Source: Torpedo marmorata | Taxonomy: Eukaryota | Direction: 5' to 3' | Assembly: GCA_977017645.1 (NCBI GenBank) | Contig: OZ360238.1 | Coordinates: 76,446,001 to 76,510,000 of the forward strand | Length of the DNA: 64,000 nt | Shown here: one piece after another, positions 3,104 through 52,887 of the stretch | How the letters are laid out: each line of letters starts with the position of its first letter | How positions within the stretch are numbered: the first letter of the stretch is position 1 | Translations under genes and position numbers: made by a program | Notes under the pieces: generated by a model | Seen by the model: only the letters and a program-made list of their open reading frames with translations | Database searches by the model: none | What the model was told of the DNA's origin: nothing

Positions 3104-4142
3104 TCAGAATCAGAATTTATTGTCATGAACAAGTCATGAAATTCGGTGTTTTGCGGCGGCATCATAGTGCAATTAACATTCATATTAACCATCTAACGAC
3201 ATTACTATAAAAAATTATAAACAATAGTGCACGAAAAGTAAGGCAGTGTCTTTGGTTCATTGATTATTCAGGAATCTGATGGCAGCGGGGAAGAAGCTGT
3301 CCTTGTGCCGTTGAGTGCTCATCTTTAGGCTCCTGTACCTTTTTCCCGATGGAAGAAGAGTGAAGAGGGCATGGCCTGGGTGGTGGAGGTCTTTGAGGAT
3401 AGAGGCTGCTTTTTTAAGACACCGCCTCATGTAGATGTCCTCGATGGAGTGAAGTTTGGTGCCTGTGATGTCACAGGCCGAGTTAACAACCCTCTGGAGT
3501 TTACTCTTGTCCTGGGTGTTGGCACCTCCATACCAGGCAGTGATGCAACCAGCCAGAATGCTCTCCACGGTACACCTGTAGAAGTTTACAAGAGTCTTTG
3601 GTGACATACCGAATCTCCGCAGACTCCTCACAAAGTATAGCCGCTGACGAGCCTTCTTTGTGATTGCATCAACGTGGATGCTCCAGGACAGATCCTCGGA
3701 GATGTTGACACCCAGGAATTTGAAGTTCTTGACCCTCTCCACGACTGAGCCCTCGATGAGGACTGGGGCGTGTTCCCCTGACTTCCTCCTGAAGTCCACA
3801 ATCATCTCCTTGGTTTTGCTGACGTTGAGCTCAAGGTTGTTGCCATTACACCATTCAACGAGCTGATCTATCTCCCTCCTGTACGCTTCCTTATTGCCAT
3901 TTGTGATTCTGCCGACAACTGTGGTGTCATCGGCAAACTTGTAGATGGCATTGGAATTGTGTCTGGCCACACAGTCATGGGTGTATAACGAATAGAGCAG
4001 TGGCCTAAGCACGCATCCTTGGGGTGCGCCTGTGTTGATAATCAGTGAGGAGGAGATGTTGTTTCCAATTCGTACTGACTGTGGTCTTCCGATGAGAAAG
4101 TCAAGGATCCAGTTGCAGAGGGGGGTACAGAGGCCTAGAGTT
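3104..4142 (-). mobile_element. 5'-truncated Rex1/Babar LINE inserted in CR1 ORF2
   Basis: Open RT C-terminal half ([15 protein letters not shown]...KFADDTT...[10 protein letters not shown]) and the tail tgacaataaattctgattctgat. Confidence 0.92.
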
Positions 4143-6250: not shown

Positions 6251-6619
6251 CTCTTGAGCCAAAGCCTCAGAGCTCCACTCCTTCCCTGTGCCTCCTGAGC
6301 CAAAGCCTCAGTGCTCCACTCCTTCCCTGTGCCTCTTGAGCCAAAGCCTCAGAGCTCCACTCCTTCCCTGTGCCTCTTGAGCCAAAGCCTCAGAGCTCCA
6401 CTCCTTCCCTGTGCCTCTTGAGCCAAAGCCTCAGAGCTCCACTCCTTCCCTGTGCCTCTTGAGCCAAAGCCTCAGAGCTCCACTCCTTCCCTGTGCCTCT
6501 TGAGCCAAAGCCTCAGAGCTCCACTCCTTCCCTGTGCCTCTTGAGCCAAAGCCTCAGAGCTCCACTCCTTACCTGTGCCTCTGGAGCCAAAGCCTCAGAG
6601 CTCCACTCCTTCCCTGTGC
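6251..6619. repeat. 41-bp tandem repeat, 9 copies, in the CR1 5' UTR
   Basis: Unit ctcttgagccaaagcctcagagctccactccttccctgtgc; copies nearly identical. Confidence 0.95.
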
Positions 6620-6740
6620 CACTCACTCACTGGGCCGCTCCTCACTGGCTGCTCCCTCTACTTCCCTTCCTTTTATAGGTCACTGCTAATTAACTCTAAT
6701 ACCCAATTTCTTACTACTACTAATCACCACTTAACCTAGC

Positions 6741-10433: not shown

Positions 10434-11307
10434 TAGGCAGTCCCCAGGTTAAATACGAGTTCCGTTACCTAGGTCTGTCTTTAACTAAAATTTGTATTTA
10501 AGTCGGAACAAGTACATACGGTCCTGATTTAGCGTCAGTTAGTCAAATGTTTATCTTAGTATATAGCATATATAGTATATATTTTACCTTCCTATGCATG
10601 TAAAACACTTAAGAAACACTTCCAAATACACTACAACATCTTAAACATACTAATACAGTACATAATTGGATGATGTAGGAGAAGATGATGGAGAGATGGC
10701 GACTGTTGGAGAGGGTGGACCTGGTGCTGAAGAGTCAGGGTTTGATTCCCATGCTGGAGGGGGGGTTTACTACTGGAGTCAATTTCTTGAAGTAGGCATC
10801 AAGGGAGGTTTGTACAGAGCTTTTCTTTTTCCCATCATAAATGGCCTTAAATCCCCTGGTAGATTTGGTACAGTACAAATACAGTGCAGGTGTATTAGGA
10901 TTTTAGCCACGTGAAACTTGGAGGTGGAATCAGCTGCAAAGAAGCATCTGTTCATTTTTTGCTGCCTTTAACCCAAGTAGGCAGTAAAGAGTCACCAAAC
11001 TGTTGGTTCACGAGTCACTTGTAAACCAGACAAAATAAGAGTGTACAGTACTGTACAGGTGCGATGTTCAAATGCGTACTTTTCAATTTCGAATCTGTTC
11101 CCGCGCCTGCGATTTGCGGTATGCTACTCTCTCGCGATGCTGGGCGATGGCAGCATCGAGCAAGAGTATCGTACAGCATACTCTCTCACGATACTGACTC
11201 AACCACGCTCGAACCGGAAGTTGATGGCATTCTACTTCCGGCCGGCTTGTCGGTTCGTAAGTACGAGTTGTTCGTAAATCGGACGTTTTTAACCCAGGGA
11301 CTGCCTG
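10434..11307 (-). mobile_element. Tigger/pogo-like non-autonomous DNA transposon
   Basis: TIRs taggcagtccccaggtt / aacccagggactgcctg followed by TA; minus-strand remnant IYDGKKKSSVQTSLDAYFKK resembles a Tigger transposase C-terminus. Confidence 0.75.
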
Positions 11308-11454
11308 TACTTACTTTTGTCTCTAACTTAAGTGGTTGCTTTGTCCACCTGTCTCTCCACCTCTCTCATCTTCTGTCCAATACTCTGACGTTTCTTGGGC
11401 CCTCCCAAACTTCTTTCCCTCTTTATATACACAATATCACTCCCTTTTTAATAA

Positions 11455-12748
11455 CAAACTCACCTGGTCCATCTCCGATAACACTCTCCCCTTCCTGGAT
11501 CTCTCTGTCTCCACCTCGGGAGGCAAGCTTTCCACTGACATTTACTACAAACCCTCCAACTCCCACAACTATCTGGACTACACTTCTTCACACCCTGTCC
11601 CCTGCCAGGATTCCATCCCCTTCTCTCAATTTCTCCGTCTCCGCCGCATCTGCTCCCAAGATGAGGTCTTCCAGTCCAGATATTCTGAAATGTCTGCCTT
11701 CTTCCACAAACGTGGCTTCCCCTCCACCACCATCAACTCAGCCCTCACCCGCATCTCCTCCATTTCCCGCTCATTTGCCCTGGCCCCCTCTGCCCCCAGA
11801 TGCAACAAACATAGAATCCCCCTCATCCTTACCTACCACCCCACCAGCCTCTGCATCCAACACATTATCCGCCGGAATTTCCGGCACTTACTACAGGATC
11901 CCACCACCAGACACATTTTTCCTTCTCCTCCCCTCTCGGCCTTCTGTAGGGACCGCTCCCTCCGCGATTCCCTCATGCACTCATCCCTCCCTACCCATCG
12001 CACCCCCGGCACCTTCTCCTGTGCCTGCAGGATGTGCAACACCTGCGCCCACACCTCCCCCCTCACCACGGTCCGGGGCCCCAAACAGGCCTTTCAAGTG
12101 AAGCTACACTTCACTTGTACATCCAGAGAACTTATTTACTGCATCCGGTGCTCCCTTTGTAGCATTCTCTACATCGGAGAGACCGGTCATAGATTGGGAG
12201 ATCGCTTTACTGAGCACCTCCTCTCTGTCCGCAACAACAGCGACCTCCCAGTAGTCAACCATTTCAACTGCGAGTCACACTCACGTCTGTCCATGGCCTT
12301 ATGTACTATCCCACCCAGACTACCCGCAAATTGTAGGAACAACATCTCATTTTCCGTCTGGGCACTCTCCAGCCAGATGGCATTAACATTGACTTTTCTG
12401 CATTCCACTAAACCTGCTTGCCTTTTCCTTCCCCTCCCCCCTTACCTGTCCTTCCAGTTTTTTTCCACCCACCCAGCCATCCCTCCTCCCCCTCTTTGCT
12501 GCTGTCCCCTCCCTCCTTTCTCCACCTATCATCTCCTGCCTTTGCCAACCCCCCTACCCCCCCTCACTCTTTTGTTCGGACGCCTGCCGGCATTTTCTCA
12601 TACTTTGATGAAGGGCTCAAGCCCAAAACGTCAGTTATGTATTTTCTACCTTTGCTACATAAAAGACACTGTTTGACCTGCTGAGTTTCTCCAGCATTTG
12701 TGTTTTTTACTTCAACCACAGTGTCTACAGATTTTCGTGATTTACTTT
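11455..12748 (+). mobile_element. 5'-truncated Neptune-type PLE
   Basis: LPFLDLSV, SQFLRLRRIC, CxxxxCxxC linker, IYCIRC..C..LYIGETG; pLTR with a hammerhead motif at 12599-12639 (GAAA mutated to AAAA). Confidence 0.92.
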
Positions 12749-23475: not shown

Positions 23476-23625
23476 CTTTATTGGCCGTTCCAATTCTGGT
23501 TTCTTGTAACGCAACCACATCATTCCAATAATAGCTAATCCAATGCACAGCCAGTTGAAGAAACTGAAGAAGTTAATTACAGAGTATATATCGACAGAGA
23601 ATGCATACATCAAAGTCATCCAACA
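23476..23625 (-). CDS. SLC7A5: SLC7A5/LAT1-like coding exon (exon 8)
   Basis: ttacag|TGTTGG...ATAAAG|gtaatt; 150 nt; [62 protein letters not shown] is LAT1-type rather than LAT2-type. Confidence 0.96.
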
Positions 23626-23776
23626 CTGTAAAACAGGAACAAAAAGCATTATCAGCAAAGAGTTGTATATTTAATCAAATTCTTCTTCTGCCAAAGAACA
23701 ATTTAAAATTTGATCTGGAAGTAGTAATGACAAAAATGGCAGCCTACCTGAAAATTAAGTCATGAAATACAAATAA

Positions 23777-25175
23777 AATCAGAATCAGAATTTTTTTTCA
23801 TGAACAAGTCATGAAATTCGGTGTTTTGCGGCAGCATCATAGTGCAAACATTCATATTATTACCATCTTACGACATTACTATAAAAAAAATATATATAAA
23901 TAATAGTACACGTAAAGTAAGGCAGTGTCTTTGGTTCATTGATTATTCAGGAATCTGATGGCAGCGGGGAAGAAGCTGTCCTTGTGCCGTTGAGTGCTCG
24001 ACTTTAGGCTCCTGTACCTTTTTCCCGATGGAAGCAGAGTGAAGAGGGCATGGCCTGGGTGGTGGGGGTCTTTGGGGACAGAGGCTGCTTTTTTAAGACA
24101 CCGTCTCGTGTAGATGTCCTCGATGGAGTGAACTGGTGCTTGTGATGTCACAGGCCGAGTTAACAACCCTCTGGAGTTTATTCTTGTCCTGAGAGTTGGC
24201 GCCTCCATACCAGGCAGTGATGCAACCAGCCAGAATGCTCTCCACGGTACACCTGTAGTTTACGAGAGTCTTCGGTGACATTCCTAATCTTCTCAGACAC
24301 CTCACAAAGGATAGCTGCTGGTGAGCCTTCTTTGTGATTGCATCAACGTGGAGGCTCCAGGACAGATCCTCGGAGATGTTGACTCCCAGGAATTTGAAGT
24401 TCTTGACCCTCTCCATTACTGAGCCCTCGATGAGGACTGGGTCATGTTCCCCTGACTTCCTCCTGAAGTCCACAATCATCTCCTTGGTTTTGCTGACGTT
24501 GAGCGCAAGGTTGTTGTCGTTACACCATTCAACGAGCTGATCTATCTCCCTCCTGTACGCTTCCTCATTGCCGTTTGTGATTCTGCGGACAACTGTGGTG
24601 TCATCGGCAAACTTGTAGATGGCATTGGAGTTGTGCCTGGCCACACAGTCATGGGTGTATAACGAGTAGAGCAGTGGACTAAGCACGCATCCTTGGGGTG
24701 CGCCTGTGTTGATAATCAGTGAGGAGGAGACGTTGTTTCCAATTCGTACTGACTGTGGTCTTCCAATGAGAAAGTCAAGGATCCTGTTGCAGAGAGGGGT
24801 ACAGAGGCCTAGAGTTTGTAGCTTCTTGACCAGCACTGAGGGAATAATGGTATTGAAGGCCGAGCTGTAATCGATGAAAAGCAGCCGTATGTATGAATTG
24901 CTGTTTTCGAGGTGATCCAGAGCTGAGTGGAGAACCAGCGATATTGCATCTGCTGTGGAGCGATTGTGACGATAGGCAAATTGCAGTGGGTCCAGATCTT
25001 TGCTTAGGTACGTGTTAATTCTGGCCATGACCAGCCTCTCAAAGCATTTCATCACAGTAGAAGTTAGTGCTAACTGGGCGGTAGACGTTGAGGCAGCTCA
25101 CATTACTCTTCTTGGGTGATTGATGCCCTTTTGAAGCAGGTGGGAACCTCTGACTGCCGCAATGAGAGGTTGAAA
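23777..25175 (-). mobile_element. Rex1/Babar LINE, 5'-truncated
   Basis: 320-aa RT ORF at 24093-25055 with the canonical motifs, plus the Rex1 tail. Confidence 0.93.
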
Positions 25176-28100
25176 ACAGAGAACGATGGAAATACTCAGC
25201 AAATTAGACAGCTGTATCCTAGCCACCGCCAAGAATAAAATTCTTAACATGGTAGTGCCCACCAATGAAGTGGAAACCCAGAGCTTCGTTGGCCTCTTAG
25301 GCTACTGGCAACAACACATTCCCCACCTTACAATGATACTCTGCCCATTATACCACGTCTCCAGGAAAAAAGCTACCTTTCAATGGGGTCCCGAGAGGCA
25401 AATGGCTTTCGACACGGCAAAACAGGCCGTTGAGCAGGCACTGCCACTAACCCCCCCACCCCCCGCCAGACAGGGTTCCCCTTCGAGCTACAGGTTTCTG
25501 CCATCACTACAATGGCTGAGTGGAGACTCTGGCAAAAGATGAAAGGTTGCAGAGTCCCACTCGGCTTCTGGACCAAGACCCTCCCTGAGACCGCCTCTCG
25601 CTAGAGCCCATTTGAGCGCCAGCTGCTAGTGTGCTAACTAGCACTCCTCGCCACCGAGCACCAAACGACAGGCGAGACCATCACTCTCCGACCTCACCTC
25701 CCCGTCATGTGATGGGTGAAGTCCACTGATGCCACCCACAACCAGGGTCGGGCCCAGCGGTGCTCCATTGTAAAGTGGAAGTGGTACATCGCGGACTACG
25801 CCGACCGAGGCTGGCTCTGAGGGGGTGAGCCGACTACACGAGCAGGTAATGTCCCTCCCCGAAAACGACACTCCCCCTCCCCATGTCCCTACAGTATCAC
25901 CCTCCCCAGGTCCCTGCAGTACACCCCTCCCCCGTAGCCTGGGGCCAGTATTTCGACACCAGCAGTATTCCAGACCAGCAGTAACAGGCCTGATTCGCAG
26001 ACGGCTCCAGCCGGTGGAAGAGAGGCAAGCACCTTAGGAAGGCAGTGGCGCTACACCCCGCCACGGGTAAGACACACAATAGGGGGCTGGCCGAGCTGGC
26101 CACGGTAGCACTCGCTCCGAGAAACCACAGGCCCTATCCGTATTTACACTGACTCCTGGGCAGTGGCCAACGGCATGGCTGTATGGATGGCCCAGTGGCA
26201 CGACATGGGCTGGAAAATTCAGTTCGCCCGCTCTGGAGTCAGCAGCACTGGCGGTTTATCTGGGGGCAGGCTGGGCAGAGTGCGCTCACGGTGCACCATG
26301 TGGACGCGCACAACAACAGAGACACGGTGGAGGCTGCACACAATGCTGCCATAGACCGCGCAGCACAATTTTGATCAGCCACCCTGCACCCCGATCACAC
26401 TGACCTCAGTGCACTGGAACATGGACGCACTGCAAGAGTGGGCATTTGGGGTCCCACGGCATGCGACGGTGGGAAGAGGGTCGAAAGGTGGCACTGATGC
26501 ACGACGAGGCTAGAACCGCAGTGGACAATTGCCCCACCTGACAGCATGTCAAACCGCTGGGCTGGCCAACGGGTCCACCGGGTCACCTTCGCTGCAGCAC
26601 GAGGGCAGGCCAGGTATGGCAAGTTGACTATGTCGGGCTGCTCCTAGGCCAAAATAAAAAGCAGTCCATCCTCACTATAGTCGACACATACTCAGGTGTC
26701 CTGGTGTCAGTGCCCTGCCAGAGAGCCGACCAGGACAGTCCCGTTCAAAGGCTGCAATACCTCTCTTCCATTCATAGGAGGTACAGTCCGACTAGGGGAC
26801 TCACTTCACGGAGGAGGTACAGTCCGACTAGGGGACTCACTTCACGGAGGAGGTACAGTCCGACTAGGGGACTCACTTCACAGAGAAGGTACAGTCCGAC
26901 TAGGGGACTCACTTCACGGAGGAGGTACAGTCCGACTAGGGGATTCACTTCACGGAGGAGGTACAGTCCGACTAGGGGACTCACTTCACGGAGGAGGTAC
27001 AGTCAGACTAGGGGACTCACTTCACGGAGGAGGTACAGTCCGACTAGGGGACTCACTTCACGGAGGAGGTACAGTCCGACTAGGGGACTCACTTCACAGA
27101 GGAGGTACAGTCCGACTAGGGGACTCACTTCACGGGGGAGGTACAGTCCGACTAGGGGACTCACTTCACAGAGGAGGTACAGTCCGACTAGGGGACTCAC
27201 TTCACGGGGGAGGTACAGTCCGACTAGGGGACTCACTTCACGGGGGAGGTACAGTCCGACTAGGGGACTCACTTCACGGAGGAGGTACAGTCCGACTAGG
27301 GGACTCACTTCACGGAGGAGGTACAGTCCGACTAGGGGACTCACTTCACGGAGGAGGTACAGTCCGACTAGGGGACTCACTTCACGGAGGAGGTACAGTC
27401 CGACTAGGGGACTCACTTCACGGGGGAGGTACAGTCCGACTAGGGGACTCACTTCACGGAGGAGGTACAGTCCGACTAGGGGACTCACTTCACGGGGGAG
27501 GTACAGTCCGACTAGGGGACTCACTTCACGGAGGAGGTACAGTCCGACTAGGGGACTCACTTCACGGGGGAGGTACAGTCCGACCAGGGGACTCACTTCA
27601 CGGAGGAGGTACAGTCCGACTAGGGGACTCACTTCACGGAGGAGGTACAGTCCGACTAGGGGACTCACTTCACGGGGGAGGTACAGTCCGACTAGGGGAC
27701 TCACTTCACGGAGGAGGTACAGTCCGACTAGGGGACTCACTTCACGGAGGAGGTACAGTCCGACTAGGGGACTCACTTCACGGAGGAGGTACAGTCCGAC
27801 TAGGGGACTCACTTCACGGAGGAGGTACAGTCCGACTAGGGGACTCACTTCACGGAGGAGGTACAGTCCGACTAGGGGACTCACTTCACGGGGGAGGTAC
27901 AGTCCGACTAGGGGACTCACTTCACGGAGGAGGTACAGTCCGACTAGGGGACTCACTTCACGGAGGAGGTACAGTCCGACTAGGGGACTCACTTCACGGA
28001 GGAGGTACAGTCCGACTAGGGGACTCACTTCACGGAGGAGGTACAGTCCGACTAGGGGACTCACTTCACGGAGGAGGTACAGTCCGACCAGGGGACTCAC

Positions 28101-30562
28101 TTCACGGAGGAGGTACAGTCCGACTAGGGGACTCACTTCACGGGGGAGGTACAGTCCGACTAGGGGACTCACTTCACGGAGGAGGTACAGTCCGACTAGG
28201 GGACTCACTTCACGGAGGAGGTACAGTCCGACTAGGGGACTCACTTCACGGAGGAGGTACAGTCCGACTAGGGGACTCACTTCACGGGGGAGGTAATGTC
28301 CGACCAGGGGACTCACTTCACGGAGGAGGTACAGTCCGACTAGGGGACTCACTTCACGGAGGAGGTACAGTCCGACTAGGGGACTCACTTCACGGGGGAG
28401 GTACAGTCCGACCAGGGGACTCACTTCACGGAGGAGGTACAGTCCGACTAGGGGACTCACTTCACGGGGGAGGTACAGTCCGACTAGGGGACTCACTTCA
28501 CGGAGGAGGTACAGTCCGACCAGGGGACTCACTTCACGGGGGAGGTACAGTCCGACTAGGGGACTCACTTCACGGGGGAGGTACAGTCCGACCAGGGGAC
28601 TCACTTCACGGGGGAGGTACAGTCCGACTAGGGGACTCACTTCACGGAGGAGGTACAGTCCGACCAGGGGACTCACTTCACGGAGGAGGTACAGTCCGAC
28701 TAGGGGACTCACTTCACGGAGGAGGTACAGTCCGACTAGGGGACTCACTTCACGGGGGAGGTACAGTCCGACTAGGGGACTCACTTCACGGAGGAGGTAC
28801 AGTCCGACTAGGGGACTCACTTCACGGAGGAGGTACAGTCCGACTAGGGGACTCACTTCACGGAGGAGGTACAGTCCGACTAGGGGACTCACTTCACGGA
28901 GGAGGTACAGTCCGACTAGGGGACTCACTTCACGGAGGAGGTACAGTCCGACTAGGGGACTCACTTCACAGAGGAGGTACAGTCCGACTAGGGGACTCAC
29001 TTCACGGAGGAGGTACAGTCAGACTAGGGGACTCACTTCACGGAGGAGGTACAGTCAGACTAGGGGACTCACTTCACGGAGGAGGTACAGTCCGACTAGG
29101 GGACTCACTTCACGGGGGAGGTACAGTCCGACTAGGGGACTCACTTCACGGAGGAGGTACAGTCCGACTAGGGGACTCACTTCACGGAGGAGGTACAGTC
29201 CGACTAGGGGACTCACTTCACGGAGGAGGTACAGTCAGACTAGGGGACTCACTTCACGGGGGAGGTACAGTCAGACTAGGGAACTCACTTCACGGAGGAG
29301 GTACAGTCAGATAGTGGACTCACTTCACGGAGGAGGTACAGTCCGACTAGGGGACTCACTTCACGGAGGAGGTACAGTCCGACTAGGGGACTCACTTCAC
29401 GGGGGAGGTACAGTCCGACTAGGGGACTCACTTCACGGAGGAGGTACAGTCCGACTAGGGGACTCACTTCACGGAGGAGGTACAGTCAGACTAGGGGACT
29501 CACTTCACGGAGGAGGTACAGTCCGACTAGGGGACTCACTTCACGGAGGAGGTACAGTCCGACTAGGGGACTCACTTCACGGGGGAGGTACAGTCCGACT
29601 AGGGGACTCACTTCACGGAGGAGGTACAGTCCGACTAGGGGACTCACTTCACGGAGGAGGTACAGTCCGACTAGGGGACTCACTTCACGGAGGAGGTACA
29701 GTCCGACTAGGGGACTCACTTCACGGAGGAGGTACAGTCCGACTAGGGGACTCACTTCACGGAGGAGGTACAGTCCGACTAGGGGACTCACTTCACGGAG
29801 GAGGTACAGTCCGACTAGGGGACTCACTTCACGGAGGAGGTACAGTCCGACTAGGGGACTCACTTCACGGAGGAGGTACAGTCCGACTAGGGGACTCACT
29901 TCACGGAGGAGGTACAGTCCGACTAGGGGACTCACTTCACGGAGGAGGTACAGTCCGACTAGGGGACTCACTTCACGGGGGAGGTACAGTCCGACTAGGG
30001 GACTCACTTCACAGAGGAGGTACAGTCCGACTAGGGGACTCACTTCACGGGGGAGGTACAGTCCGACTAGGGGACTCACTTCACGGAGGAGGTACAGTCC
30101 GACTAGGGGACTCACTTCACGGGGACAGAAGTACAGAATTGGGCGGGTGGAGGCTGGTATCTCGTGACTGCTGCACATCCCCTACCACCCACAGGCATCT
30201 GGCTTAATAGAACGTATGAATGGTCTACTTAAAGAGAATATTTGTACACTGACGCCCAAACATACATTGCAGGGGTTGCTCAGTGTGCTCCAGCAGGCAG
30301 TACACCAGTTAATTTAGCGCCCCACCAGGTAGGGGGGTTCCCCACTCTCACACTACCGGGCATCCTCCGATGCCCCCAAAACTGACGAAGTCGACATGCA
30401 AGACTCTGAGGAGTGCGTAGAGTGTGGGTGCAGCAGCCACAGGGTCCACTGTTAAAAGGGGAGATCATTGCACTTGGTCCGGGTGATACGCGATGGGTCG
30501 CGATACCGGGTGAATCAAACCTTTCATGTTACCATACTAACCAACTCACCAGACATGAGTGA
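25176..30562 (+). pseudogene. pol: Endogenous retrovirus pol remnant, ERV-L/class III-like (RT thumb, tether, RNase H, integrase)
   Basis: SFVGLLGYWQQHIPHL..PLY..RKKATFQWGPE; PLGFW..LP; SIVKWKWYI; IFTDSWAVANG; VHHVDAH; WQVDYVG..TIVDTYSG; after the tandem array HFTGTEVQNWA..HIPYHPQASGLIERMNGLLKE. Many stops and frameshifts; no LTR recognised. Confidence 0.88.
26777..30123 (+). repeat. 36-bp minisatellite, ~93 copies, derived from the integrase core
   Basis: Unit gaggtacagtccgactaggggactcacttcacgga(g/ggg variant), head-to-tail with no spacers; one reading frame gives EVQSD(*/Q)GTHFT(E/G). Confidence 0.97.
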
Positions 30563-30599
30563 GTTCTCCCAGAACCCCCCCCCCCCCAATCCAACAGAA

Positions 30600-31560
30600 G
30601 AAGACTACCCTTCAAGCTGCTCCTTTTCCAGCCTACGCTGATCAGCGCTGTGGGAGCCTACGAATACGTATGCAGCACCACCACACCAGACTGCGGCACC
30701 TGCATCACTTCTCCGGCAGACACAGCTGAGGGTCTTCCACCTCTGCTGACCCTGTTCGACGACAACTACAGGAGCTGCTTGCATGGACTCTTTTATCCAA
30801 AATGTTTTGGTAATGACGGTGTTCTTCCACTCCCCTCACCACTTTACCACCTCACTTCCAATAATCCTTGCTGGGGTGGGTGCTTCGGGAACTGATTTAT
30901 TTTTCCCCTCCATACAATTTGGCACACAAACAGTCCTGACTCTCCCAGTGGGTCCACAAAGGGAAGCACGCCTTGGCAACGTGGTGCACCTAGTTCAGTC
31001 AGCACCAGTCTAAGCAATCAGTGGGAATGCGAGCAGGAACAGCATTCTGGCATGATACGGCTGACAGTCCACAGCCCAGCTAACGGGGGTGCACCTATGA
31101 GAATACCGGTACGTCCTAGATGTGCACCTGCTGGGCCGACCCCTGGCTTCCCACGGGACGGCATGGCGTTGGCCATCCGGGATGCATGCCTCCAAACGAT
31201 GGGGGAAGCACCCGGTAGGATGGCCACCGCAGTGGATACGCTGGCCAAAGAAAGGGCTGTGGTACTTTAGATTCAGGGAAAGCCGGATGACCTTGTACTA
31301 CCTGCTCGCAGACGAAGGTGGTACCAGTGCTGTTGTCGGTGAGACGCGCTGCACACACATCCCGGGAAAGTCAGTGAGACCATATATGAGAGTCAGTTAC
31401 TGACAAAAAACAGATAGGGGGCCAGTTCCCGCAGTACGACACTCCATGGGGAGAACAATGACGCTTTCGGTCTGTGGGGAGTTGGTACGCCGTTGTAATT
31501 TTCTGAAACAATACCTTCACCCTTCTGTTGTGCCTATCCATTTATTCACCAGGCACTTCG
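30600..31560 (+). pseudogene. env: ERV env remnant (gamma-type TM)
   Basis: Decayed furin site RPR(C), heptad-like region MATAVDTLAKE, then SRMTLYYLLADEGGTSAVVGETRCTHIP, which resembles the immunosuppressive domain plus CX6CC (NRMALDYLLA.EGG.CA..G..CCTYIP). Confidence 0.75.
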
Positions 31561-31699
31561 ACTGTAACAACGTATTTACCTTTTGTAACAATGTATTAAT
31601 TTTTTTTTGTAATAATGTTTTTACTTGTTTTTTTAATGACTGCCTATTGGTTTGAGAAAAAGAGCTAATACTTTAGATCAATGAGCTTTCATCTCAGAG

Positions 31700-32533
31700 T
31701 GATAGAGTTATACAACATGGAAAAAGGCCCTTTGGCCCAACATTCATGCTGTTAAAGGAGTCTTCCTGACTAGAACCATTTGCCATCCTCTAAATCTTTC
31801 CTATCTACATTCCTATTCAGATGTCTTTTCAATGTAATTGTTTCTGTGTCTACCATTTCTTCTATCAGCTCTTTCCTTTGTGTGGGAAAACGTGCCACTC
31901 AGATCCCTTTTTAATCTTTCTCCTCTCACCTTAAACTATGCCCAGTTTTAGACTCCCCTACCCTTAAAAAAAAGCTGTGACCATCTATCTTGTTTATGGC
32001 CCTCTTGATTTTATCAACCTCTATAAGTCACCCCTGAGCCTCTTTCGTTCGATGGAAAATAGTTCAAGCCTATACAGTCTCTGCTTATAGCTGAAATCCT
32101 TTGGTCCCAGTGACATCCTTGTGAATCTCTTCTGTACCCTCTCTCTAGCTTATTCACATCCTTCCTATGGTATGGTGACCAAAACTACACACAATATTAC
32201 AGGTGATCACCAAAGCCTTGTACAGCTGTAATACGCCATCCCCACTCTTGTACGAAATGCCACATCTGTGCCACATGCCATCTTAACCATCTTGCTACAT
32301 GTATCGCCACTTTCAAAGGACTATGTACAACACTGCAAAGGTGCCTGTCACTCACTATGTATCTCCTGCTCTAGTCTAACTTCCCAAAATGTATTACTTT
32401 GAACTGATCCGTTAAATTCCATCTGGCATTCCTTGGGGCACTTTCCCAGTTGATCTGGATCCTGTGGTAGACTCAGACAATCTTCTTCAGTGTCCACCAC
32501 GCCACCAATTTTGGTGCTATTCATAAATTTACT
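31700..32533 (-). mobile_element. Old CR1 3' fragment
   Basis: TKIGGVVDTEE..CQMEFN remnant and a CR1 3' UTR. Confidence 0.75.
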
Positions 32534-33032
32534 ACAGTGGAAGTCCAAAAATCCAGATGCCAGAAATCTGAACCACCTGAGAATCCGGACTTTTCGAAAA
32601 CTCTCAAACTTATTAAATTTAGTGGGCTTTTGTGTGTGTGCATGCGTGCGTAAGCGACACAGATGCACAGCGGCAACAAGCGACCATAAAATAACTTCTG
32701 CTTTCATTTGTATATTCTATTTTTCTTCTCCAATGTTCATTTTTAAACATAATTTCAAGCATTACATGCTCTTTTTTATGTAGTGAAAACATTTTATGTT
32801 TACATTTTTGTCAAGTGCCACCGCCACACGTCTGAACACCTGAGGGGGTGTTGGAAGTAAATTGGCATTCTCCCTATGTGGTAATTAGAGTCACATTTAG
32901 CTCTTCGAATTTTGTATTCAATTATTTTGCATAATGTACTGAATTATTTCCCTACACAGAATTTCTAGGCCACTACACAAATCTTTGAGTTGTTATGTTC
33001 ATAGTTGATTGCAGTCAAATTTCTGCACCTCT

Positions 33033-33739
33033 ATGTGCCATATCGTCTTGCCTTAAAACTCTGGGCTTGTTCTTTCCATTTTGTTTTTACAAAGTCTAGA
33101 TTCAATTTATTGTCATAGTAATAACCAGAGGACGGGAAGATCACCCCCGTCTGAGAAGGAGAAGCAGAGGAGACGACCCACGGGACGGTGACCAGGGCGG
33201 TGGACCGGTGAGGGGATCTGAGGCTGAAGGACCAGTGCATGCGGCGGGTTGCTGGCGACTCGAGGCGAGGAACCCGCGGAGGCTGTGGGCTGCTGGAGAC
33301 TGCTGTCGGGGGACTCACACCGGGCTGCGGACTGCTGGAGGCTGGCTCGAACTGGCTGGAGGAGTACCAGGTATCGGAACCGGGATGCGAGGGGGTGCCG
33401 AGGGCGACCTAACCGTGTTGGAGGTTCGGATCTGGAGCTCGGGATGCCGATCATTTGGACTGGACTCTGTGTGGCTGCGGAAGCGCTGGAGGCGAATCTA
33501 TGGACACTTGGTGACTGGGGGGACTTTTTTTTGCTTCTCTTTCTCTGACTGTAAGGAATGTTAGACGCGCTTAGGCAATTTCTGCCGGTGGCGAATCTGT
33601 CTGCCTTGCAGCAGGCAAAAATAAATTTCATGGAATATGACACTGTCTTATTACTATGACAATAAATTGAATCTAGACTTTGTAAAAACAAAATGGAAAG
33701 AACAAGCCCAGAGTTTTAAGGCAAGACGATATGGCACAT
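33033..33739. repeat. Perfect 92-bp inverted repeat (arms 33033-33124 and 33648-33739)
   Basis: atgtgccatatcgtc...ttgtcatagtaataa is the exact reverse complement of ttattactatgacaa...gacgatatggcacat. Confidence 0.95.
33125..33673 (+). mobile_element. GC-rich non-autonomous retroelement with a Rex1-type tail
   Basis: CpG-rich body with no recognisable RT; ends tgacaataaattgaatct like the Rex1 3' ends in this window. Confidence 0.6.
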
Positions 33740-34462
33740 GGAAATAAAACAAAGTGGGGGATTGTAGACTGCGAAGTAGGGAAGGGTTAGTTTGATCGTG
33801 GAGTTGGTTTATATTGGTTGGCACAACATTGTAGGCTGAAGGGCCTGTACTATACTGTTCTATATACATTTTACATACAAATTTAATCATTAGATTCAAA
33901 CCTATGTGTTAGTTCAATATATTTTTTGATGATTTTCAGAGTTTGGCGCAAGAACATGAAATGGAAACATCACTGCATGTAACCCACAACTCCGCTGTCC
34001 AAGGTGGATACAAATAACACCAGACAGCATTTGGAAGAAAAGGCAGACAGCTTTCCCTTGTGATGTGACCAAAACTGATGCCTCACTCAGTACAGGTATT
34101 ACCAAACTGAAGTATCCAGTCAATATGATATTGCTGGTGTGGGAGCTTGCTGTGAATAAACTGCATGGCACATTTCCTGTATTACTGCACTTCAAATAAG
34201 TATTCCTCTGGTTGAAAGCACTTTGGAGCATTTTATTGGAGATTCGGAGAACTATAAAATTGCAGGTGCTTTTTTAAAAAATTCTCCCCCTTGCACAAGC
34301 TCACGTTGTTTTTGTTTACATTCATCAGAATATCATCAATAAATGGTCCCATTTCTACGGTGATAGATTCCATTTCAGCAAATGGGATTGCATCAGGCAC
34401 CAGTATAACCATGTTCCAGATTAAATCAAGAATAAAATTACTGCAAATGCAATAATGAATTT

Positions 34463-35887
34463 AAAAAGGGTTCAAGGAGGAAGCCTGGCAATTATCGGCC
34501 TGTAAGTTTGACGTCTGTGGTAGGTAAATTAATGGAGAAAGTTCTCATAGATAGGACTTATAAATATCTGGATAGGCAGGGTCTGATCGGGAACTCTCAA
34601 CATGGATTTGTGAGCGGAAGGTCCTGTTTGACAAATCTGATTGAATTTTTTGAAGAGGTGACTAGGACTGTGGATGAGGGTAGTGCAGTGGATGTTGTCT
34701 ATATGGACTTCAGTAAGGCCTTTGATAAGGTTCCGCATGGAAGGTTAGTGAGGAAGGTGCAGTCTTTAGGTATAGATTCTGAGATAGTCAAATGGATTGA
34801 ACATTGGCTGGAGGGGAGAGGCCAGAGAGTGGTAGTGGATAATTGTTTGTCAGGTTGGAAGCCCGTGACAAGCGGTGTGCCTCAGGGATCTGTATTGGGC
34901 CCATTGTTGTTTGTTATATATATCAATGATCTAGATGATGGGGTGGTAAACTGGATTAGTAAATATGCAGATGATACCAAGATAGGTGGAATAGTGGATA
35001 ATGAAGAAGGTTTTCAAGGATTGCAGAAGGATTTGGGCTGCTTAGAAAAGTGGGCTGAAAAATGGCAGATGGAGTTTAATGCTGATAAGTGTGAGGTGCT
35101 TCATTTTGGAAAGAAGAATCAGAACAGGACATATGTGGTAAATGGGAGAGCATTGATGAATACAGAAGAGCAGAAAGATTTAGGAATAACGGTGCATCGT
35201 TCCCTGAAGGTGGAAACTCATGTGAATAGGGTGGTGAAGAAGGCTTTTAGTATGCTGGCCTTCATCAATCAATGCATAGAATATAGGAGTTGGGAAGTGA
35301 TGTTGAGATTATATAAGGCTTTGGTGCGGCCTAATTTAGAGTTCTGTGTGCAGTTCTGGTCGCCAAATTATAGGAAGGATATCAACAAAGTGGAGAGAGT
35401 GCAGAGAAGGTTTACCAGAATGTTACCTGGGTTTAAGAATTTAGAGTACAAGGAGAGATTGAGCAGATTAGGTCTTTATTCTTTGGAGCGTAGAAGGTTG
35501 AGAGGGGATTTGATAGAGGTATTTAAAATTATGAAAGGGATAGACAGAGTGGATGTGGATAGACTATTTCCATTAAGAATAGGAGAGATTGAAACAAGAG
35601 GACATGAGCTAAGAGTTAAGGGGCAGAGGTTTAGAGGTAACATGAGGGGGAACTTCTTTACTCAGAGAGTGGTAGCTGTGTGGAATGAGCTTCTGGGAGA
35701 AGTAGTGGCGGCAGAGTCAATTTTAGTATTTAAGAAAAAGTTGGACAAGTATATGGATGAGAGGGAAGTGGAGGGTTATGGGCAAGGTGCAGGTAGGTGG
35801 GACTAGATAGGAATGTTTTGGTTCGGTGCGGACTGGAAGGGCCTAATGGCCTGTTTCCGTGCTGTAATTGTTATATGGTTATATGGA
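34463..35887 (+). mobile_element. Young 5'-truncated CR1 with an uninterrupted RT ORF
   Basis: 432-aa ORF 34508-35806 ([25 protein letters not shown]); tail gttatatggttatatgg. Confidence 0.95.
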
Positions 35888-36104
35888 ATTCATAAAACCA
35901 TGCTCTGCCATTTGAATGTGGTGTCATTTTGTATTTGTAACTTATGCTTCCAGACATACAAATTACTGCACAGCTTTTTGAATATCCACTTAAATCTCAG
36001 CAAAGTATTTTGAGCTGTTCTTTGAAAGCATATTGAAAACAGTATTCCAGCAATGATATGGCTTCTTGACCATACAATAAAATATCAACACAAAAGATAC
36101 TTAC

Positions 36105-36201
36105 AGTAAATATTAATGACGGTAGAGGGGTAAAGTGTCTTGGGTGAATCATTGCGAGGAGGTTGGGCAAATGACCCTCTCTTGCTCCCACAAAGAATAA
36201 T
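36105..36201 (-). CDS. SLC7A5: SLC7A5/LAT1-like coding exon (exon 7)
   Basis: ttacag|ATTATTC...TTTACT|gtaagt; 97 nt; [32 protein letters not shown]. Confidence 0.95.
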
Positions 36202-37087
36202 CTGTAACAAAAGAAGGAGCTATTGAAAATTTAAAGAGCAAAAATGCAATGGGGAGGCAAGCATTTACTGTTACCAACAATTAAGTTCAATTTTCTGCAA
36301 CATACCAATGAATCTTCAGGATGTTAACAATATTGTGGTGGCATAGCTGTAAAATTACTGGACTAACAACCCAGTGCATCCAGGTTCAAATCCCAATAAA
36401 ACAGCCATGAAATTTATTTTTAGTTATGGAGGGAGTAAATAATGACCATTAAACGACAGAATGATGGTCAGAAAGATCTATCTGCTTCACTCACGTTGTT
36501 CAGGAAGGAAATATGTCATCCACACCTGAAATGGCCAAGATGTGATACCAAACCCACTAAGGCAATGACTCTGAAATGGCCTAATGTTGGACCAGGAACA
36601 GTGCCTGGAATTCCTGAAAATGAAGGGCCAAAGTGGTGAAGCTATAGTATAAAATGACAAGCATGCTAAACTACAAACACAGCACGCAATAGACAGGACG
36701 AAGTGATTCTGCAATCATCTGATCACATTGAAGGTCTGCCTGTGCAGGCCTACCACATCAGCAGAGGACACTCCAGCCCAAATCCTGGAACTCTCTTGTT
36801 AACATACTAAACTTCCACCAAAAGGACAGCAACAGTTCAAGAAGGTAGCTCACCATGATCTTCTATAGGGCTAATACGCATGGGCAATAAATTCCAGTGC
36901 CAATGACGTTCAGAAAGGATAAATAAATCAGCTGGTTGTCCACCCAGCTAAATTTCAACTCTGCAGAATTTTCTGGAGGAATCCAAAACAACCAATCTAT
37001 AGTCTGGTTTCACCTGTATTTTCCAAAGCTCTAATGAAACCCTTTGGATGTTTGGGTAGAATATAATAGGAGAATAAAGAGAGGGCG

Positions 37088-39255
37088 AATAAGAACATAA
37101 GAAACAGGAGCAGGAGTACGCCATTCGGCCCGTCGAGCCTGCTCCGCCATTCAATGAGATCATGGCTGATCTGATGATATGCTCATCTCCACCTACCTGC
37201 CTTTTCCCTATATAGGTAGTTCTTGACTTACGACCATAATTGGGACCGAAGAATTGGTCGTAAGTCGGATTCAATCTGCTGTGCATATCTGCTACCACCC
37301 CTACTACCATCAACATTATTTTCAATTTAAAACCTGGTTTCCAGCTCTAGTTGTTGTATTTACTTGAATTCTGGTCCTAGCTAATTCAAAGGAAACCCAT
37401 CTTTATGGAACAGCTCACCCACCCGAGCACCCGACGCCCCGACCGCCTACCCATCCGAGCTCCCGACGCACCAGCCACCCGCTCATCAGAGCTCCAGACG
37501 CCCCGACTGCCCACCCACGCGAGCTCCCGACGCCTCGGCCACCCGCCCACCGGAGCTCCCGATGCCCCCGACCGCGGATCCTTGCCTGGGCCGCCCGTCC
37601 ATCCGAGCTCCTGACGACCCAGACATGTCTGTTACCCATAATCCCCCACGCAGCTCTGCGTTTCCCTGGCAGCTGCGTGGGGGATTATGGGTAACGAAGA
37701 TGGCCATTGATCCTGCATTGAGCCGCCGCTCCTGTCCGAGTCCAATGATTACTTCTAACGAGTTTAAACACACTGCTGAGCAGCGTTAAGCTGTGAGCGT
37801 TCAGCGTCGTCGCACACTTTATTATACGATTTTTATGCAGGTGGACGTAACTCTCGTAGGTCGTAAGTTGAGGACTATCTGTATCCCTTAATTCCCCTAC
37901 TATGTAAAAATCTATCCAACCTTGTCTTCGATATATTTGTTGAGGTAGCCTCCACTGCTTCAATGGGCAGCGAATTCCAGATTCACCACCCTCTGGGAAA
38001 AGCAGTTCCTCCACATCTCCGTCCTAAATCTACTGCCCTGAATCTTGAGGCTATGTCCCCTAGTTCAGGTCTCCCCCACCAATGTAAACAACTTACCTAC
38101 CTCTATCTTATCTATGCCTTTCATAATTTTATTTGTTTCTATAAGATTCCCTCTCATTCTTCTAAATTCCAGCGAGTAAAATCCCAGACGATTCAATCTC
38201 TCCTCATAGGCTAACCCCCCTCATCTCTGGAATCAACCTGGTGAACCTCCTCTGTACCGCCTCCAAAGCCAGTACATCCTTCCTCAAGTAAGGAGACAAG
38301 AACTGCATGCAGTACTCCAGATGCAGTCTCACCAGTACCTTGTACAGTTGCAGCATAATCTCCCTGCTCCTAAACTCAATCCCTCTAGCAATGATGGCTA
38401 ACATTCCATTTGCCTTCTTGATAACCTGCTTCACCTGCAAACCGACCTTTTGCGATTCATGCACAAGCACTCCCAAGTCCTTTTGCACGGCAGCATGCTG
38501 CAATCACTTGCCATTTAAATAATACTCTCATCTTCCATTTTCCCTTCCAAAGTGGATAACCTCACATTTACCAACACTGTACTCCATCTGCCAGACCCTT
38601 GCCCACTCAATTAACCTATCTATATCTCTCTGCACTCTCCATATCCTCTGCACAATTTGCTTTTCTTCTCAATTTAGTGTCATCAGCAAACTTAGATACA
38701 CTACGCTCTGTCCCCTCTTCCAGATAGTTTATGTATACCGTGAACAGTTGTGGGCCCAGCACCAATCCCTGCGGCACTCCGCTCACCACTGATTGCCAAC
38801 CAGAAAAACACCCCTGTACCCCAACTCCCTGCTTTCTATTGGTTAACCAATCCTCTATCCATGCTAATACATCACTCCCAACTCTATGCATCCTTATCTT
38901 CTGTACAAGTCTTTTATGCGGCACCTTATTGAACACCTTCTGGAAATCCAGGTAAACAACAGCCATATGGTCTCCTCGATCTACCGCGCTCATTATATCC
39001 TCAAAAAACTCCAATAAATTTGTCAAATAGGACCCGCCTTTGCTGAATCCATGCTGCATCTGCCATTTTGCTCCAGCTTCAAGCATTTTCCCAACTACAG
39101 ATGTTAAACTAACCTGCCTTTTGCCTACATCCTTTTTTAATAGTGCCGCGACATTCGCCGTATTCCAATCCACTGGAACCTGCCCAGAGTCCAGAGAACT
39201 TTGGTAAATTATCACCAAAGCCTCGACTATAACTTCTGCCATCTCCTTTAACCTT
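37088..39255 (-). mobile_element. CR1 LINE 3' part (different subfamily), interrupted by a MITE
   Basis: RT remnants YLDFQKVF, GVPQG, KFADDTK; tail ttcttatgttcttat. Confidence 0.85.
37213..37881. mobile_element. Tc1/Tigger-like MITE
   Basis: TIRs taggtagttcttgacttacgacc / ggtcgtaagttgaggactatctg flanked by TA; splits the CR1 3' UTR; GC-rich degenerate internal repeats. Confidence 0.85.
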
Positions 39256-40627: not shown

Positions 40628-40790
40628 AAACCCAGCTCTGTAGTTAAGTGCACCAAACTAAACCCAGCTCTGTAGTTAAGTGCACCAAACTAAACCCAGC
40701 TCTGTAGTTAAGTGCACCAAACTAAACCCAGCTCTGTAGTTAAGTGCACCAAACTAAACCCAGCTCTGTAGTTAAGTGCACCAAACTAAA
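40628..40790. repeat. 32-bp tandem repeat, 5 identical copies
   Basis: aaacccagctctgtagttaagtgcaccaaact x5. Confidence 0.95.
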
Positions 40791-41869
40791 CTCTGACTTT
40801 AATCACAATACAATCAGTTATGAACATTTTATAAAATCCAGATTATGCCATTCTTTTCAAAATGTTGATTTAAATGTAAGTTGTACGTGGTGACAATGGA
40901 ATGGATGGCACTAAGGGTTTGCTTTTATAACCAATATTAGCTGAGTGCTAAATCCTTTGTTGGTCAAATTAACACCAAAATTCATGGAATATCAGGAATA
41001 TCTACATAATTCTTAAACAGCTTGAAAAATTGAGCATTGATTTTATATTTTATATGCTGCAAATAAAAAGCTCATCGCTAAAGATGTTTTATGCTGGATA
41101 ATTTCCATGGCTGACCAGAGAAATCAACGGTAGAGTCTTATAAACTGTCAGAAATAGCAGTAGGATTGGAAACATTTAAGAAATGAGCAAAGGAAGACCA
41201 ACAAAATCCAAAAGAAAATAACATGAAAATAAGTTTATAAGAACCAAAACAGAGTTTATGAACTTCTCTCGATACATTAAAAGCAGGACACTAGTAAAGT
41301 AAACTGTGGATCCTTCACAGAGAGCAAATTTGTTAATAAGGAAAAGACAGAGAGATTACGGTATATTCTGTTTTAGTCTTTAGAAAATAAAACAAAAATC
41401 CTGCTAAAAGTACGAGAGCACCAAGTCTCTCAAGAATGAGGAACTAAAAGGGATTAGTAATGGTGATTAAAAAAAGAGTATTAAGACAAGTTGGTGGGAA
41501 CGAAAGACAATAATTCCAAGGATCCAATTATCTACATCCCAGAATATTGTGAGAGGTGTATGGAGATGGCGGATGTTCTGATTTTCAACTTCCGAAATTC
41601 TATATAATCTGGTTTGGTTCCTGCAAATTGGAGGTAGCAAATATGTATTTACTATTTAAGAAAGGAAAGAGAGCAGACAGGGAACTACTAACCTGTTACT
41701 AATGGGGAAAATGCTTGAACCTACAATGAAGAACTAATAACATAATACGAGAAAAAGATTATGCTTGAGCAGTCACAATGGATTTATGAAAGAGAAATCA
41801 TGTTTGATTAATCTATTTTGTTAAAGATGTGATGATTAGAAAAGATAAATAAGAACTAAAAGGGTGGCA

Positions 41870-49202: not shown

Positions 49203-51383
49203 TTAGTGGAAAGCAGAAAAGTCAATGTTAATTCCATCTGGCTGGAGTGTGCCGAGACGGAATATGAGATGTTGTTCCAACAGTTTGCGGGTAGTCTGGG
49301 TGGGATAGTACATGAGGCCATGGACAGACATGTGAGTGTGGGAGTGTGACCCAGAATTGAAATGGTTGGCCACTGGGAGGTCGCTGTTGTTGCGAACCGA
49401 GCGGAGGTGCTGAGCGAAGCGATCTCCCAATCTACGACCGGTCTCTCCAATGTATAGAAAGCCACAAAGGGAGCACCGGATGCAGTAAATAAGTCCTCTG
49501 GATGTACAAGTGAAGTGTTGCTTCACTTGGAAGGCCTGTTTGGGGCCCTGGACTGTGGTGAGGGGGGAGGTGTGGGCGCAGGTGTTGCACCTCCTGCGGG
49601 CACAGGGGAAGGTTCCGGGGGTGCGATGGGTGGGGAGGGACGAGTGCACGAGTGAATCACGGAGGGAGCGGTCCCTACGGAAGGCCGAGAGGGGAGGAGA
49701 AGGAAAAATGTGTCTGGTGGTGGGATCCTGCAGCAAGTGCCGGAAATTCCGGCGGATAATGTGTTGGATGCGGAGGCTGGTGGGGTGGTAGGTGAGGATG
49801 AGGGGTATTCTATGTTTGTTGTGTCTGGGGGCAGAGGGGGCCAGGGCAGATGAGCGGGAAATGGAGGAGATGCGGGTGAGGGCTGAGTTGATGGTGGTGG
49901 AGGGGAAGCCACGTTTGTGGAAAAAGGCAGACATTTCAGAAGATCTGGAGTGGAACACCTCATCTTGGGAACAGATGCGGCGGAGGCGGAGAAATTGAGA
50001 GAAGGGGATGGAGTCCTTGCAGGGGACAGGGTGTGAGGATGTGTAGTCCAGATAGTTGTGGGAGTTGGAGGGTTTGTAGTAAATGTCGGTGGAAAGCTTG
50101 TCTCCCGAGATGGAGACAGAGAGATCCAGGAAGGGGAGAGTGTTATCGGAGATGGACCAGGTGAGTTTGAGATCGTGGTGAAAGTTGGATGCGAAGTGGA
50201 TGAAGTTGACAAGCTCATCGTGGGTGCATGAGGCAGCCCCGATGTAGTCGTCGATATACCGGAGGAAGAGATGAGGGGTCTTGCCTGTGTAGGCTTGCAG
50301 CATGGATTGCTCCACAAAGCCCACAAACAGGCAGGCGTAGCTGGGACCCATGCGGGTACCCATGGCTACTCCTTTGATTTGGAGGAAGTGGGATGAGTTG
50401 AAGGAGAAGTTATTGAGAGTAAGGACAAGTTCTGCCAGGCAGAGGAGGGTGGTGGTAGAGGGTGACTGGTCGGGTCTTTGGTCCAGGAAGAAGCGAAGTG
50501 CTTTCAGACCTTCTGTGTGGGGGATGGAGGTATAAAGGGATTGGACATCCATGGTGAAGATGATGCGGTCCGGTTCAGGGAATCTGAAGTCATTGAGGAG
50601 ATGGAGGGCATGTGAGGTGTCGCGGATGTAGGTGGGGAGGGATTGGACCAGGGGAGAAAAGATGGAGTCAAGGTAAGATGAAACTAGTTCGGTGGGGCAG
50701 GAGCAGGCAGAAACAATGGGTCTGCCCGGATGGTTGGGTTTGTGTATCTTGGGTAGAAGGTAGAAACGGGCAGTGCGGGGGTGGGGGAGAATGAGGTTGG
50801 TGGCCGTGGAGGGGAGGTGACCGTAGGTGATGAGGTCGGAGATGGTGTTGGAGACAGTGGCTTGATGTGCTGTGGCGGGATCCTGTGGGAGGGGTCGGTA
50901 GGAGGAGGTGTCTGAGAGTTGTCGACTGACCTCGGCAAGGTAGAGGTCAGTGCGCCAGACCACAACCGCACCGCCCTTGTCTGCGGGTTTGATGGTGAGG
51001 TTGGGATTGTTGCGGAGAGAGTGGAGGGCAGAGCGTTCTGAGGAGGTGAGGTTGGAATACGAGAGGGGGGTGGTGAAGTTGAGACGGTTGATGTCTCGGC
51101 GGCAGTTGGAAATAAAAAGGTCCAGAGCGGGCAGCTGGCCAGGGCGGGGTGTCCAGGAAGAGGAAGAAGGATTGAAGCGAGAGAAAGGGTCTTGGGTGGG
51201 GGGTGGAGAATCACGGTCATGGAAGTGAGCACGGAGGCGGAGGCGACGGAAGAAGAGTTCGGCATCATGGCGTGCGCGGAACTCGTTGAGGTGTGGGCGG
51301 AGGGGGACGAAGGTGAGGCCTCTACTGAGGACGGAGCGCTCCGTCTCAGAGAGGGGAAGGTCGGAGGGGATAGTAAAAACCAA
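49203..51383 (-). CDS. PLE reverse transcriptase + GIY-YIG endonuclease (C-terminal reading frame)
   Basis: PADKG, LPKIHK, GRPIVS, MDVQSLYT, GVAMGTRMGPSYA, RYIDD, FLD, Cys linker CARRRCNTC, LIYCIRCSLCGFLYIGETGR..R..H..HF..E..N; no stops in 726 codons. Confidence 0.95.
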   Translation of the reverse strand: MVFTIPSDLPLSETERSVLSRGLTFVPLRPHLNEFRARHDAELFFRRLRLRAHFHDRDSPPPTQDPFSRFNPSSSSWTPRPGQLPALDLFISNCRRDINRLNFTTPLSYSNLTSSERSALHSLRNNPNLTIKPADKGGAVVVWRTDLYLAEVSRQLSDTSSYRPLPQDPATAHQATVSNTISDLITYGHLPSTATNLILPHPRTARFYLLPKIHKPNHPGRPIVSACSCPTELVSSYLDSIFSPLVQSLPTYIRDTSHALHLLNDFRFPEPDRIIFTMDVQSLYTSIPHTEGLKALRFFLDQRPDQSPSTTTLLCLAELVLTLNNFSFNSSHFLQIKGVAMGTRMGPSYACLFVGFVEQSMLQAYTGKTPHLFLRYIDDYIGAASCTHDELVNFIHFASNFHHDLKLTWSISDNTLPFLDLSVSISGDKLSTDIYYKPSNSHNYLDYTSSHPVPCKDSIPFSQFLRLRRICSQDEVFHSRSSEMSAFFHKRGFPSTTINSALTRISSISRSSALAPSAPRHNKHRIPLILTYHPTSLRIQHIIRRNFRHLLQDPTTRHIFPSPPLSAFRRDRSLRDSLVHSSLPTHRTPGTFPCARRRCNTCAHTSPLTTVQGPKQAFQVKQHFTCTSRGLIYCIRCSLCGFLYIGETGRRLGDRFAQHLRSVRNNSDLPVANHFNSGSHSHTHMSVHGLMYYPTQTTRKLLEQHLIFRLGTLQPDGINIDFSAFH

Positions 51384-52744: not shown

Positions 52745-52887
52745 CCCTCAAAGAGTTTTCACAGAGTTGTTGTAGAATTTAAAAGTAAACACGAAAATCT
52801 GTAGACACCGTGGTTAGAGTAAAAAACACAAAAGCTGGAGAACTCAGCAGGTCAAACAGTGTCTTTTATGTAGCAAAGGTAGAAATA

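Follow-up and report, generated by a model that had tools for sequence, protein, structure and literature searches.

What is the origin of a 36-bp sequence that is repeated head to tail about 93 times inside a retroviral integrase gene, and how could such an array have formed? The question was addressed in a 64,000-nt stretch of Torpedo marmorata DNA (contig OZ360238.1), hereafter called the window, whose numbering is used throughout. An earlier note, made from the sequence alone, had proposed that the repeat arose from the active site of an ERV-L-type integrase and expanded recently within an SLC7A5 intron. The analysis favors a neutral, putatively single-locus minisatellite derived from an endogenous retrovirus (ERV), to which we assign a probability of about 0.8. 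The features on which the argument draws are the following:

23476 to 23625, minus strand: SLC7A5 (LAT1) exon downstream of the intron; LAT1 is the best PDB match, AG and GT boundaries
23936 to 25097, minus strand: retroelement reverse transcriptase (RT) reading frame, LINE-like by eye; Pfam RVT_1, E 7e-30
25228 to 25811, plus strand: RT connection/tether remnant, the first recognizable part of the provirus; tblastn with residues 519-593 of XP_072911374.1 (Hemitrygon akajei)
25901 to 26416, plus strand: frameshifted RNase H remnant; tblastn with named relatives, Pfam RNase_H, E 0.16
26404 to 26775, plus strand: N-terminal part of integrase and its core up to the left junction; Pfam rve 2-52 of 102, 63% identity to XP_059827331.1
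26776 to 26777, plus strand: left junction and frame break, with about 10 nt fewer between the first and second Asp than in relatives
26776 to 30124, plus strand: minisatellite, 36 bp x 93; TRF, unit decomposition and tblastn with relatives; in-frame stop in 86 units and lacking in 7
30125 to 30547, plus strand: rest of the integrase core (Glu codon at 30210) and C-terminal domain; 109 nt against 36 codons, one extra base
30128 to 30136, plus strand: near-copy (8 of 9) of the first 9 nt of the unit, at an offset of 39 and not 36 nt from where the last unit starts
30560 to 31500, plus strand: probable broken env, TM-like stretch at about 31100-31400; translation by eye
36105 to 36203, minus strand: 3' part of the upstream SLC7A5 exon, donor at 36104; LAT1 is the best PDB match

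The array and its integrase origin

The array was delimited by TRF at 26776-30122, with a period of 36, 93.0 copies, 97% matches and 0% indels, which places it among minisatellites, that is, head-to-tail repeats of 10-100-bp units. Decomposition into units gave 93 units of 12 types, with 52 units identical; 92 units are 36 bp long, and one, near 29298, has 35 bp. These values agree with the unit, the copy number and the translation given in the earlier note. Compared pair by pair, the 92 full-length units differ by 2.4% on average. A blastn search did not find the unit in the remainder of the 64-kb window. Open frames of 584-877 amino acids which run across the array were rejected as genes, being by-products of the 36-bp period; the reading frame shifts inside the array and again about 30 nt past it.

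An in-frame stop is present in 86 of the 93 units, including both end units. The seven stop-free units are internal (nos. 23, 37, 43, 46, 49, 51 and 53, with the variable base at 27585, 28089, 28305, 28413, 28521, 28593 and 28665), each within 1 nt of the position at which a coding unit had previously been noticed. The previous impression that they are clustered in the middle was also borne out, as they span 31 of the 93 units (P = 0.004) and their mean pair distance is short (P = 0.002; 200,000 random draws), so that P is about 0.003. The other three recurrent unit variants did not cluster when compared with random placement (P 0.09-0.97). The commonest dimorphism, at unit position 35, is found in 23 of the 93 units; one of its states resembles the left boundary of the array and the other the right boundary, which could reflect exchange reaching into the array edges, or alternatively a plain transition. 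The stop-free units were not significantly associated with a preceding position-35 variant (4 of 7, P = 0.054). Apart from the stop-free cluster, the order of units could not be distinguished from a shuffled order by the longest repeated string (P = 0.21) or by the most informative repeat (P = 0.55). Higher-order block duplication was considered and rejected, as no long duplicated block of variant units was seen.

To locate the unit within the integrase, we used protein relatives. A search with the left flank matched 19 of them; ten were looked up and the other nine left out, and eight of the ten are named proteins, from stingray, bichir, caecilian, marmoset, frog, turtle, seahorse and bilby. 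The counts given below rest on 13 named proteins, which are these eight and five cluster members; unnamed matches, one from a further search and two of the ten looked up, were excluded. Each of the 13 was compared with the unaltered window by tblastn. In 13 of 13 the matches inside the array, covering 10-17 residues, fell on the relative's own second catalytic Asp, and the flanks matched the adjoining parts of the integrase in order, so that the gene is collinear across the array. Each unit thus corresponds to 12 codons of integrase around the second catalytic Asp, as had been claimed, and the array lies between the first Asp and the rest of the enzyme. The profile searches point the same way, although at scores below the curated Pfam cut-offs: the left flank (26542-26775) matched rve 2-52 of 102 with E 3.2e-5, and the right flank (30168-30314) matched rve_3 10-51 of 67 with E 6.1e-5. 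A PDB search with the right flank gave retroviral integrases (best E 3.4e-4), and one with the left flank gave nothing meaningful; Pfam gave no match to the unit, or to the last unit with its flank, these pieces being too short.

The spacing of the catalytic residues adds to this picture. The first-to-second Asp distance is 58 codons (174 nt) in 9 of the 11 relatives resolved by the pattern and 59 codons in the other 2, and the second Asp is followed by Glu after 36 codons in 9 of 9 resolved relatives. This agrees with DX58DX35E, the integrase spacing listed for ERV-L and XtERV-S (PMC8278194, Table 2). In the window the triad is present in order, with the first Asp codon at 26626, an Asp in every unit and Glu at 30210, but its spacing is broken: the first Asp and that of unit 1 are separated by 164 nt, which is 10 nt short of the relatives and out of frame, and the Asp of the last unit and Glu by 109 nt, which is one base too long. 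The integrase frame of the left flank accordingly differs from that of the array. Judged from these sequence comparisons, the derivation of the unit from the second-Asp segment of a class III, ERV-L-related integrase is supported.

The provirus and its host intron

The provirus occupies about 25228 to about 31500 of the plus strand. In the residues listed above, its RT connection shares 69% identity with XP_072911374.1, and the Pfam RT_RNaseH match in this region is weak. The RT core of the same protein found nothing significant in the window by tblastn, and gag, protease, RT core and LTRs were not found within the 64 kb; in an LTR search the 3' tail and the flanks had no second copy in the window, as paired LTRs would. 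The minus-strand RT frame adjoins the truncated 5' end. The closest relative of the integrase is XP_059827331.1 of Hypanus sabinus, in which a gap after the second-Asp motif could reflect a deletion, an intron of the gene prediction or a further repeat. The kinship of the RT connection and the integrase to proteins of these two species points to a ray as the probable host. Nine stops in 580 aligned codons of pol and eight frame changes confirm the earlier description of a heavily decayed provirus. The env-like stretch had no match in Pfam, PDB, a protein search or Atlas, and Rfam gave 0 matches in the whole window.

The domain order, with RT connection, RNase H and integrase in succession, is shared with the class III ERVs ERV-L, ERV-S and XtERV-S (PMC8278194). 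In four of the eight named relatives scanned, a dUTPase follows the integrase core, and in this respect the provirus differs from these four lineages. No dUTPase lies between its integrase core and C-terminal domain: residues 213 and 360 of the Callithrix protein map to 30413 and 30422, and its dUTPase, residues 229-349, is skipped, there being no room for it between these two positions. The lack of dUTPase, together with an env-like sequence recognized by eye, is the layout given for ERV-S (PMC8278194). Strict ERV-L membership, which calls for a dUTPase in pol after the integrase core and for the lack of env, was rejected because there is no dUTPase at that place, and of the earlier label "ERV-L-type" only the broader part is retained: "class III, ERV-L-related" is a fair description of the provirus, as judged from the domain layout of its relatives and the triad spacing, class III being defined by RTs that cluster with those of ERV-L, ERV-S and foamy viruses.

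The earlier proposal that the array lies in an SLC7A5 intron is also upheld. Three minus-strand exons match LAT1 best among solved structures, and two of them are consecutive and enclose the provirus. The exon at 23476-23625 scored 93.5 bits against LAT1 and 50.1 bits against the next family member, and that at 36105-36203 scored 52.8 versus 49.5 bits. Between them is an intron of 12,479 nt (23626-36104) with GT-AG boundaries, in which the array lies 3.2 kb and 6.0 kb from the exons and the provirus is antisense to the gene. With orthology judged from the best matches among solved structures, the assignment of the site to an SLC7A5 intron is supported. This intron holds, in antisense orientation, a class III, ERV-L-related provirus that has accumulated stops and frameshifts and has lost its 5' half. 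The 12-codon segment of its integrase with the second catalytic Asp occurs 93 times in tandem, and to the left and right of the array the remaining parts of the gene keep their order.

Initiation and growth of the array

The earlier note had attributed the first duplication to slippage at GGAG/GGGG microhomology. The junctions do not bear this out, as no 4-nt match is present in register: the left flank matches the unit over 2 nt, the right flank over 0, and the two flanks share 1 base with each other at the junction. These values also depart from the model of Haber and Louis, in which direct repeats of 5-10 bp flank the unit in register. The model and the locus agree in a duplication that would arise locally and then be amplified by slippage, conversion or unequal exchange, and in a near-repeat that brackets the region (PMC6947457, PMC3389668). 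They differ in that the in-register homology of the flanks is at most 2 nt, and in that the near-repeat at 30128 would seed a 39-bp unit, so that a further loss of 3 nt would be needed to arrive at 36 bp. This near-repeat was noticed after the fact, and matches of 8 of 9 nt occur at 12 of 60,621 plus-strand positions. The shortfall of about 10 nt at the left junction may stem from the founding event, or may have removed the evidence for it, and the present flanks no longer reveal the initiating step.

Instability driven by DNA structure was considered as the driver and rejected: canonical G-quadruplex patterns, with G3 or G2 runs, gave 0 matches. The G4Hunter maximum was 1.44, with 6% of array windows and 0.8% of flank windows at 1.2 or above, which is a weak G-skew, and the hairpin energy of the unit was no better than that of shuffled units.

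We suggest that the first duplication was a local error of replication or repair with little in-register homology, which the near-repeat 39 nt away may have aided and which may have occurred together with the loss of about 10 nt at the left junction, as part of one event. Slippage, unequal exchange and conversion between units are established processes of array growth. Once at least two copies existed, such processes, described as acting after initiation (PMC6947457), would have produced both the growth of the array and its homogeneity. The internal cluster of stop-free units would represent local spread of one variant, which is either a retained ancestral state or a later arrival. The array would yield no useful protein, and it would be tolerated because it lies deep in the intron.

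Two further claims of the earlier note are not established by these data. A recent origin had been read from the near-identity of the copies, but concerted turnover also keeps units alike, and unit homogeneity therefore dates recent turnover and not recent birth. The exact ancestral unit had been held to be identifiable; both end units carry the stop, the left junction is short and out of frame, and the relatives vary at the stop/Gln position, with three different residues among the 8 displayed.

The coverage of a catalytic codon would be a coincidence. By computation, a 36-nt stretch drawn at random from the retained pol would include one of the three catalytic codons of integrase in about 5% of cases. 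An alternative, which we regard as quite improbable, is that the integrase position is a hotspot of the ERV family or that the array was inherited, the duplication having arisen or recurred there and spread by retrotransposition or reinfection, as with LTR12-internal repeats. XP_059827331.1 departs from the other relatives just past the second-Asp motif, where it is without about 9 residues, and then ends where the window has a stop; in the family a similar tripeptide is also encoded ahead of the unit start and again 13 residues beyond it, which gives rise to the near-repeat in the window, and multilocus repeats and hotspots have been described (PMC3389668). On the other hand, this protein is a predicted gene model whose gap may be a predicted intron, the other seven relatives displayed are unduplicated through the region, and an element carrying the array could presumably move only with help in trans.

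It is less probable still that the array affects its host. Each unit presents a splice-donor-like GTRAGT on the sense strand of SLC7A5, through which array length could modulate splicing or U1 binding; this hexamer occurs 92 times in the array and 4 times, the true donor included, in the remaining 9,131 nt of the intron. However, it is a by-product of integrase codons, and the exonic side of the donor-like site departs from the donor consensus. Acceptor-like sites (YAG with pyrimidines in at least 10 of the 14 positions upstream) number none in the array and 38 elsewhere in the intron. That intronic VNTRs can alter splicing is known, for example, from ABCA7 (PMC8327921). A bolder formulation, in which the copy number of the roughly 92 donor-like sites tunes LAT1 splicing or expression in rays, or else the integrase position is a rearrangement hotspot of a ray ERV family, is likewise unlikely. 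Finally, although a near-identical 3.3-kb array is hard to assemble, inflation of its copy number or mis-assembly is scarcely credible in view of the 12 unit types, the internal 35-bp unit, the clustered variant, the lack of a long duplicated variant block, and flanks that are collinear with relatives on both sides.

Relation to known repeats and significance

The neutral, ERV-derived minisatellite favored here belongs to a known class. In human, 7,276 minisatellites (23%) are derived from transposable elements (TEs), and 1,597 tandem repeats are associated with ERVs (Ahmed and Liang 2012, PMC3389668). That study requires a unit of at least 20 bp, a GC content of at least 40%, units at least 95% alike and TE overlap of at least one period; the present array, with a unit GC of 0.587, a unit difference of 2.4% and a location inside an ERV integrase, falls within this definition and, like the human examples, combines near-identical units with an ERV setting. 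ERV-L internal regions account for 95 rows of its tandem-repeat supplement. Row 2450 (ERVL-E-int, 68 bp, 2.01 copies) starts with QVDYIG, by eye the first-Asp motif of integrase, where the present array covers the second Asp, and rows 1444-1445 (HERVL-int, 48 bp, 2 copies) start with VHYIDD, the RT active site. The overlap with an active site is thus a curiosity with two-copy precedents, which chance alone would produce in a few percent of cases. What stands out is the number of copies: 93 here and 2-10 (maximum 10.25) in 30 of the 95 ERV-L rows, on which the comparison rests and beyond which the remaining rows may hold larger arrays. In a shallow search of the openly accessible literature, the titles and abstract openings of the top-ranked papers showed no large integrase-derived minisatellite. 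Intronic human VNTRs such as that of ABCA7 (PMC8327921) are similar in unit size (median 34 bp), intronic location and mosaic of variant units; that set excluded retrotransposon-associated repeats, whereas the present array sits in an ERV.

The known models of initiation fit only 6% of human TE-derived repeats and leave 94% unexplained (PMC3389668); for the present array, initiation could be examined in paralogous copies of the ERV in ray genomes. Here, protein homology shows from which sequence a large minisatellite arose, and its unit boundaries can therefore be set against unexpanded relatives. If its copy number differs between alleles or individuals, of which the window represents one haplotype, the array would be the VNTR that the earlier note thought probable, and it could serve as a marker in population studies. 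About virus biology it teaches nothing new: repeats commonly grow from retroviral relics, and this one is unusual for its size.

Integrase relative and env-like region

In the predicted Hypanus sabinus protein XP_059827331.1, which is the closest integrase relative of the provirus, about 9 residues are missing directly after the second-Asp motif (residues 233-244; counterpart in the window, 30150-30167), and the end of this protein coincides with a stop in the window. The region 30560-31500 appeared by eye to be env-like, with a TM-like stretch, and it gave no match in any searched library.

Splice-like signals in the array

On the SLC7A5 sense strand (the minus strand of the window), 92 donor-like GTRAGT hexamers were counted in the array (26776-30124) versus 4 in the remaining intron, while a search of the array on the same strand found 0 acceptor-like sites.

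Other repeats and retroelement frames

Other tandem repeats noticed were the following:

6249-6620, minisatellite, 41-bp x 9.1, 97% matches
37416-37575, GC-rich degenerate repeat, 32-bp x 5, 72% matches
40628-40791, perfect repeat, 32-bp x 5.1, flanked by SLC7A5 exons
within a 687-aa frame upstream of the 844-aa RT frame listed below, repeat, 57-bp x 5.8

A search of the window gave no further copies of the 41-bp unit.

Several long reading frames for RT or endonuclease, belonging to LINE-like elements, were noticed, two of them inside the SLC7A5 intron that holds the array; they are listed here together with the 844-aa frame:

1262-5264, minus, LINE-like frame(s)
23936-25097, minus, LINE-like, in the intron
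34436-35806, plus, LINE-like, in the intron
49203-52747, minus, 844-aa frame, matching RT (E 1.8e-6) and, weakly, GIY-YIG (E 2.5e-4)

The presence of both the RT and the weak GIY-YIG matches marks the 844-aa frame as Penelope-like. Pieces of similar appearance were noticed by eye near 11300-12700 and 53400-54400.
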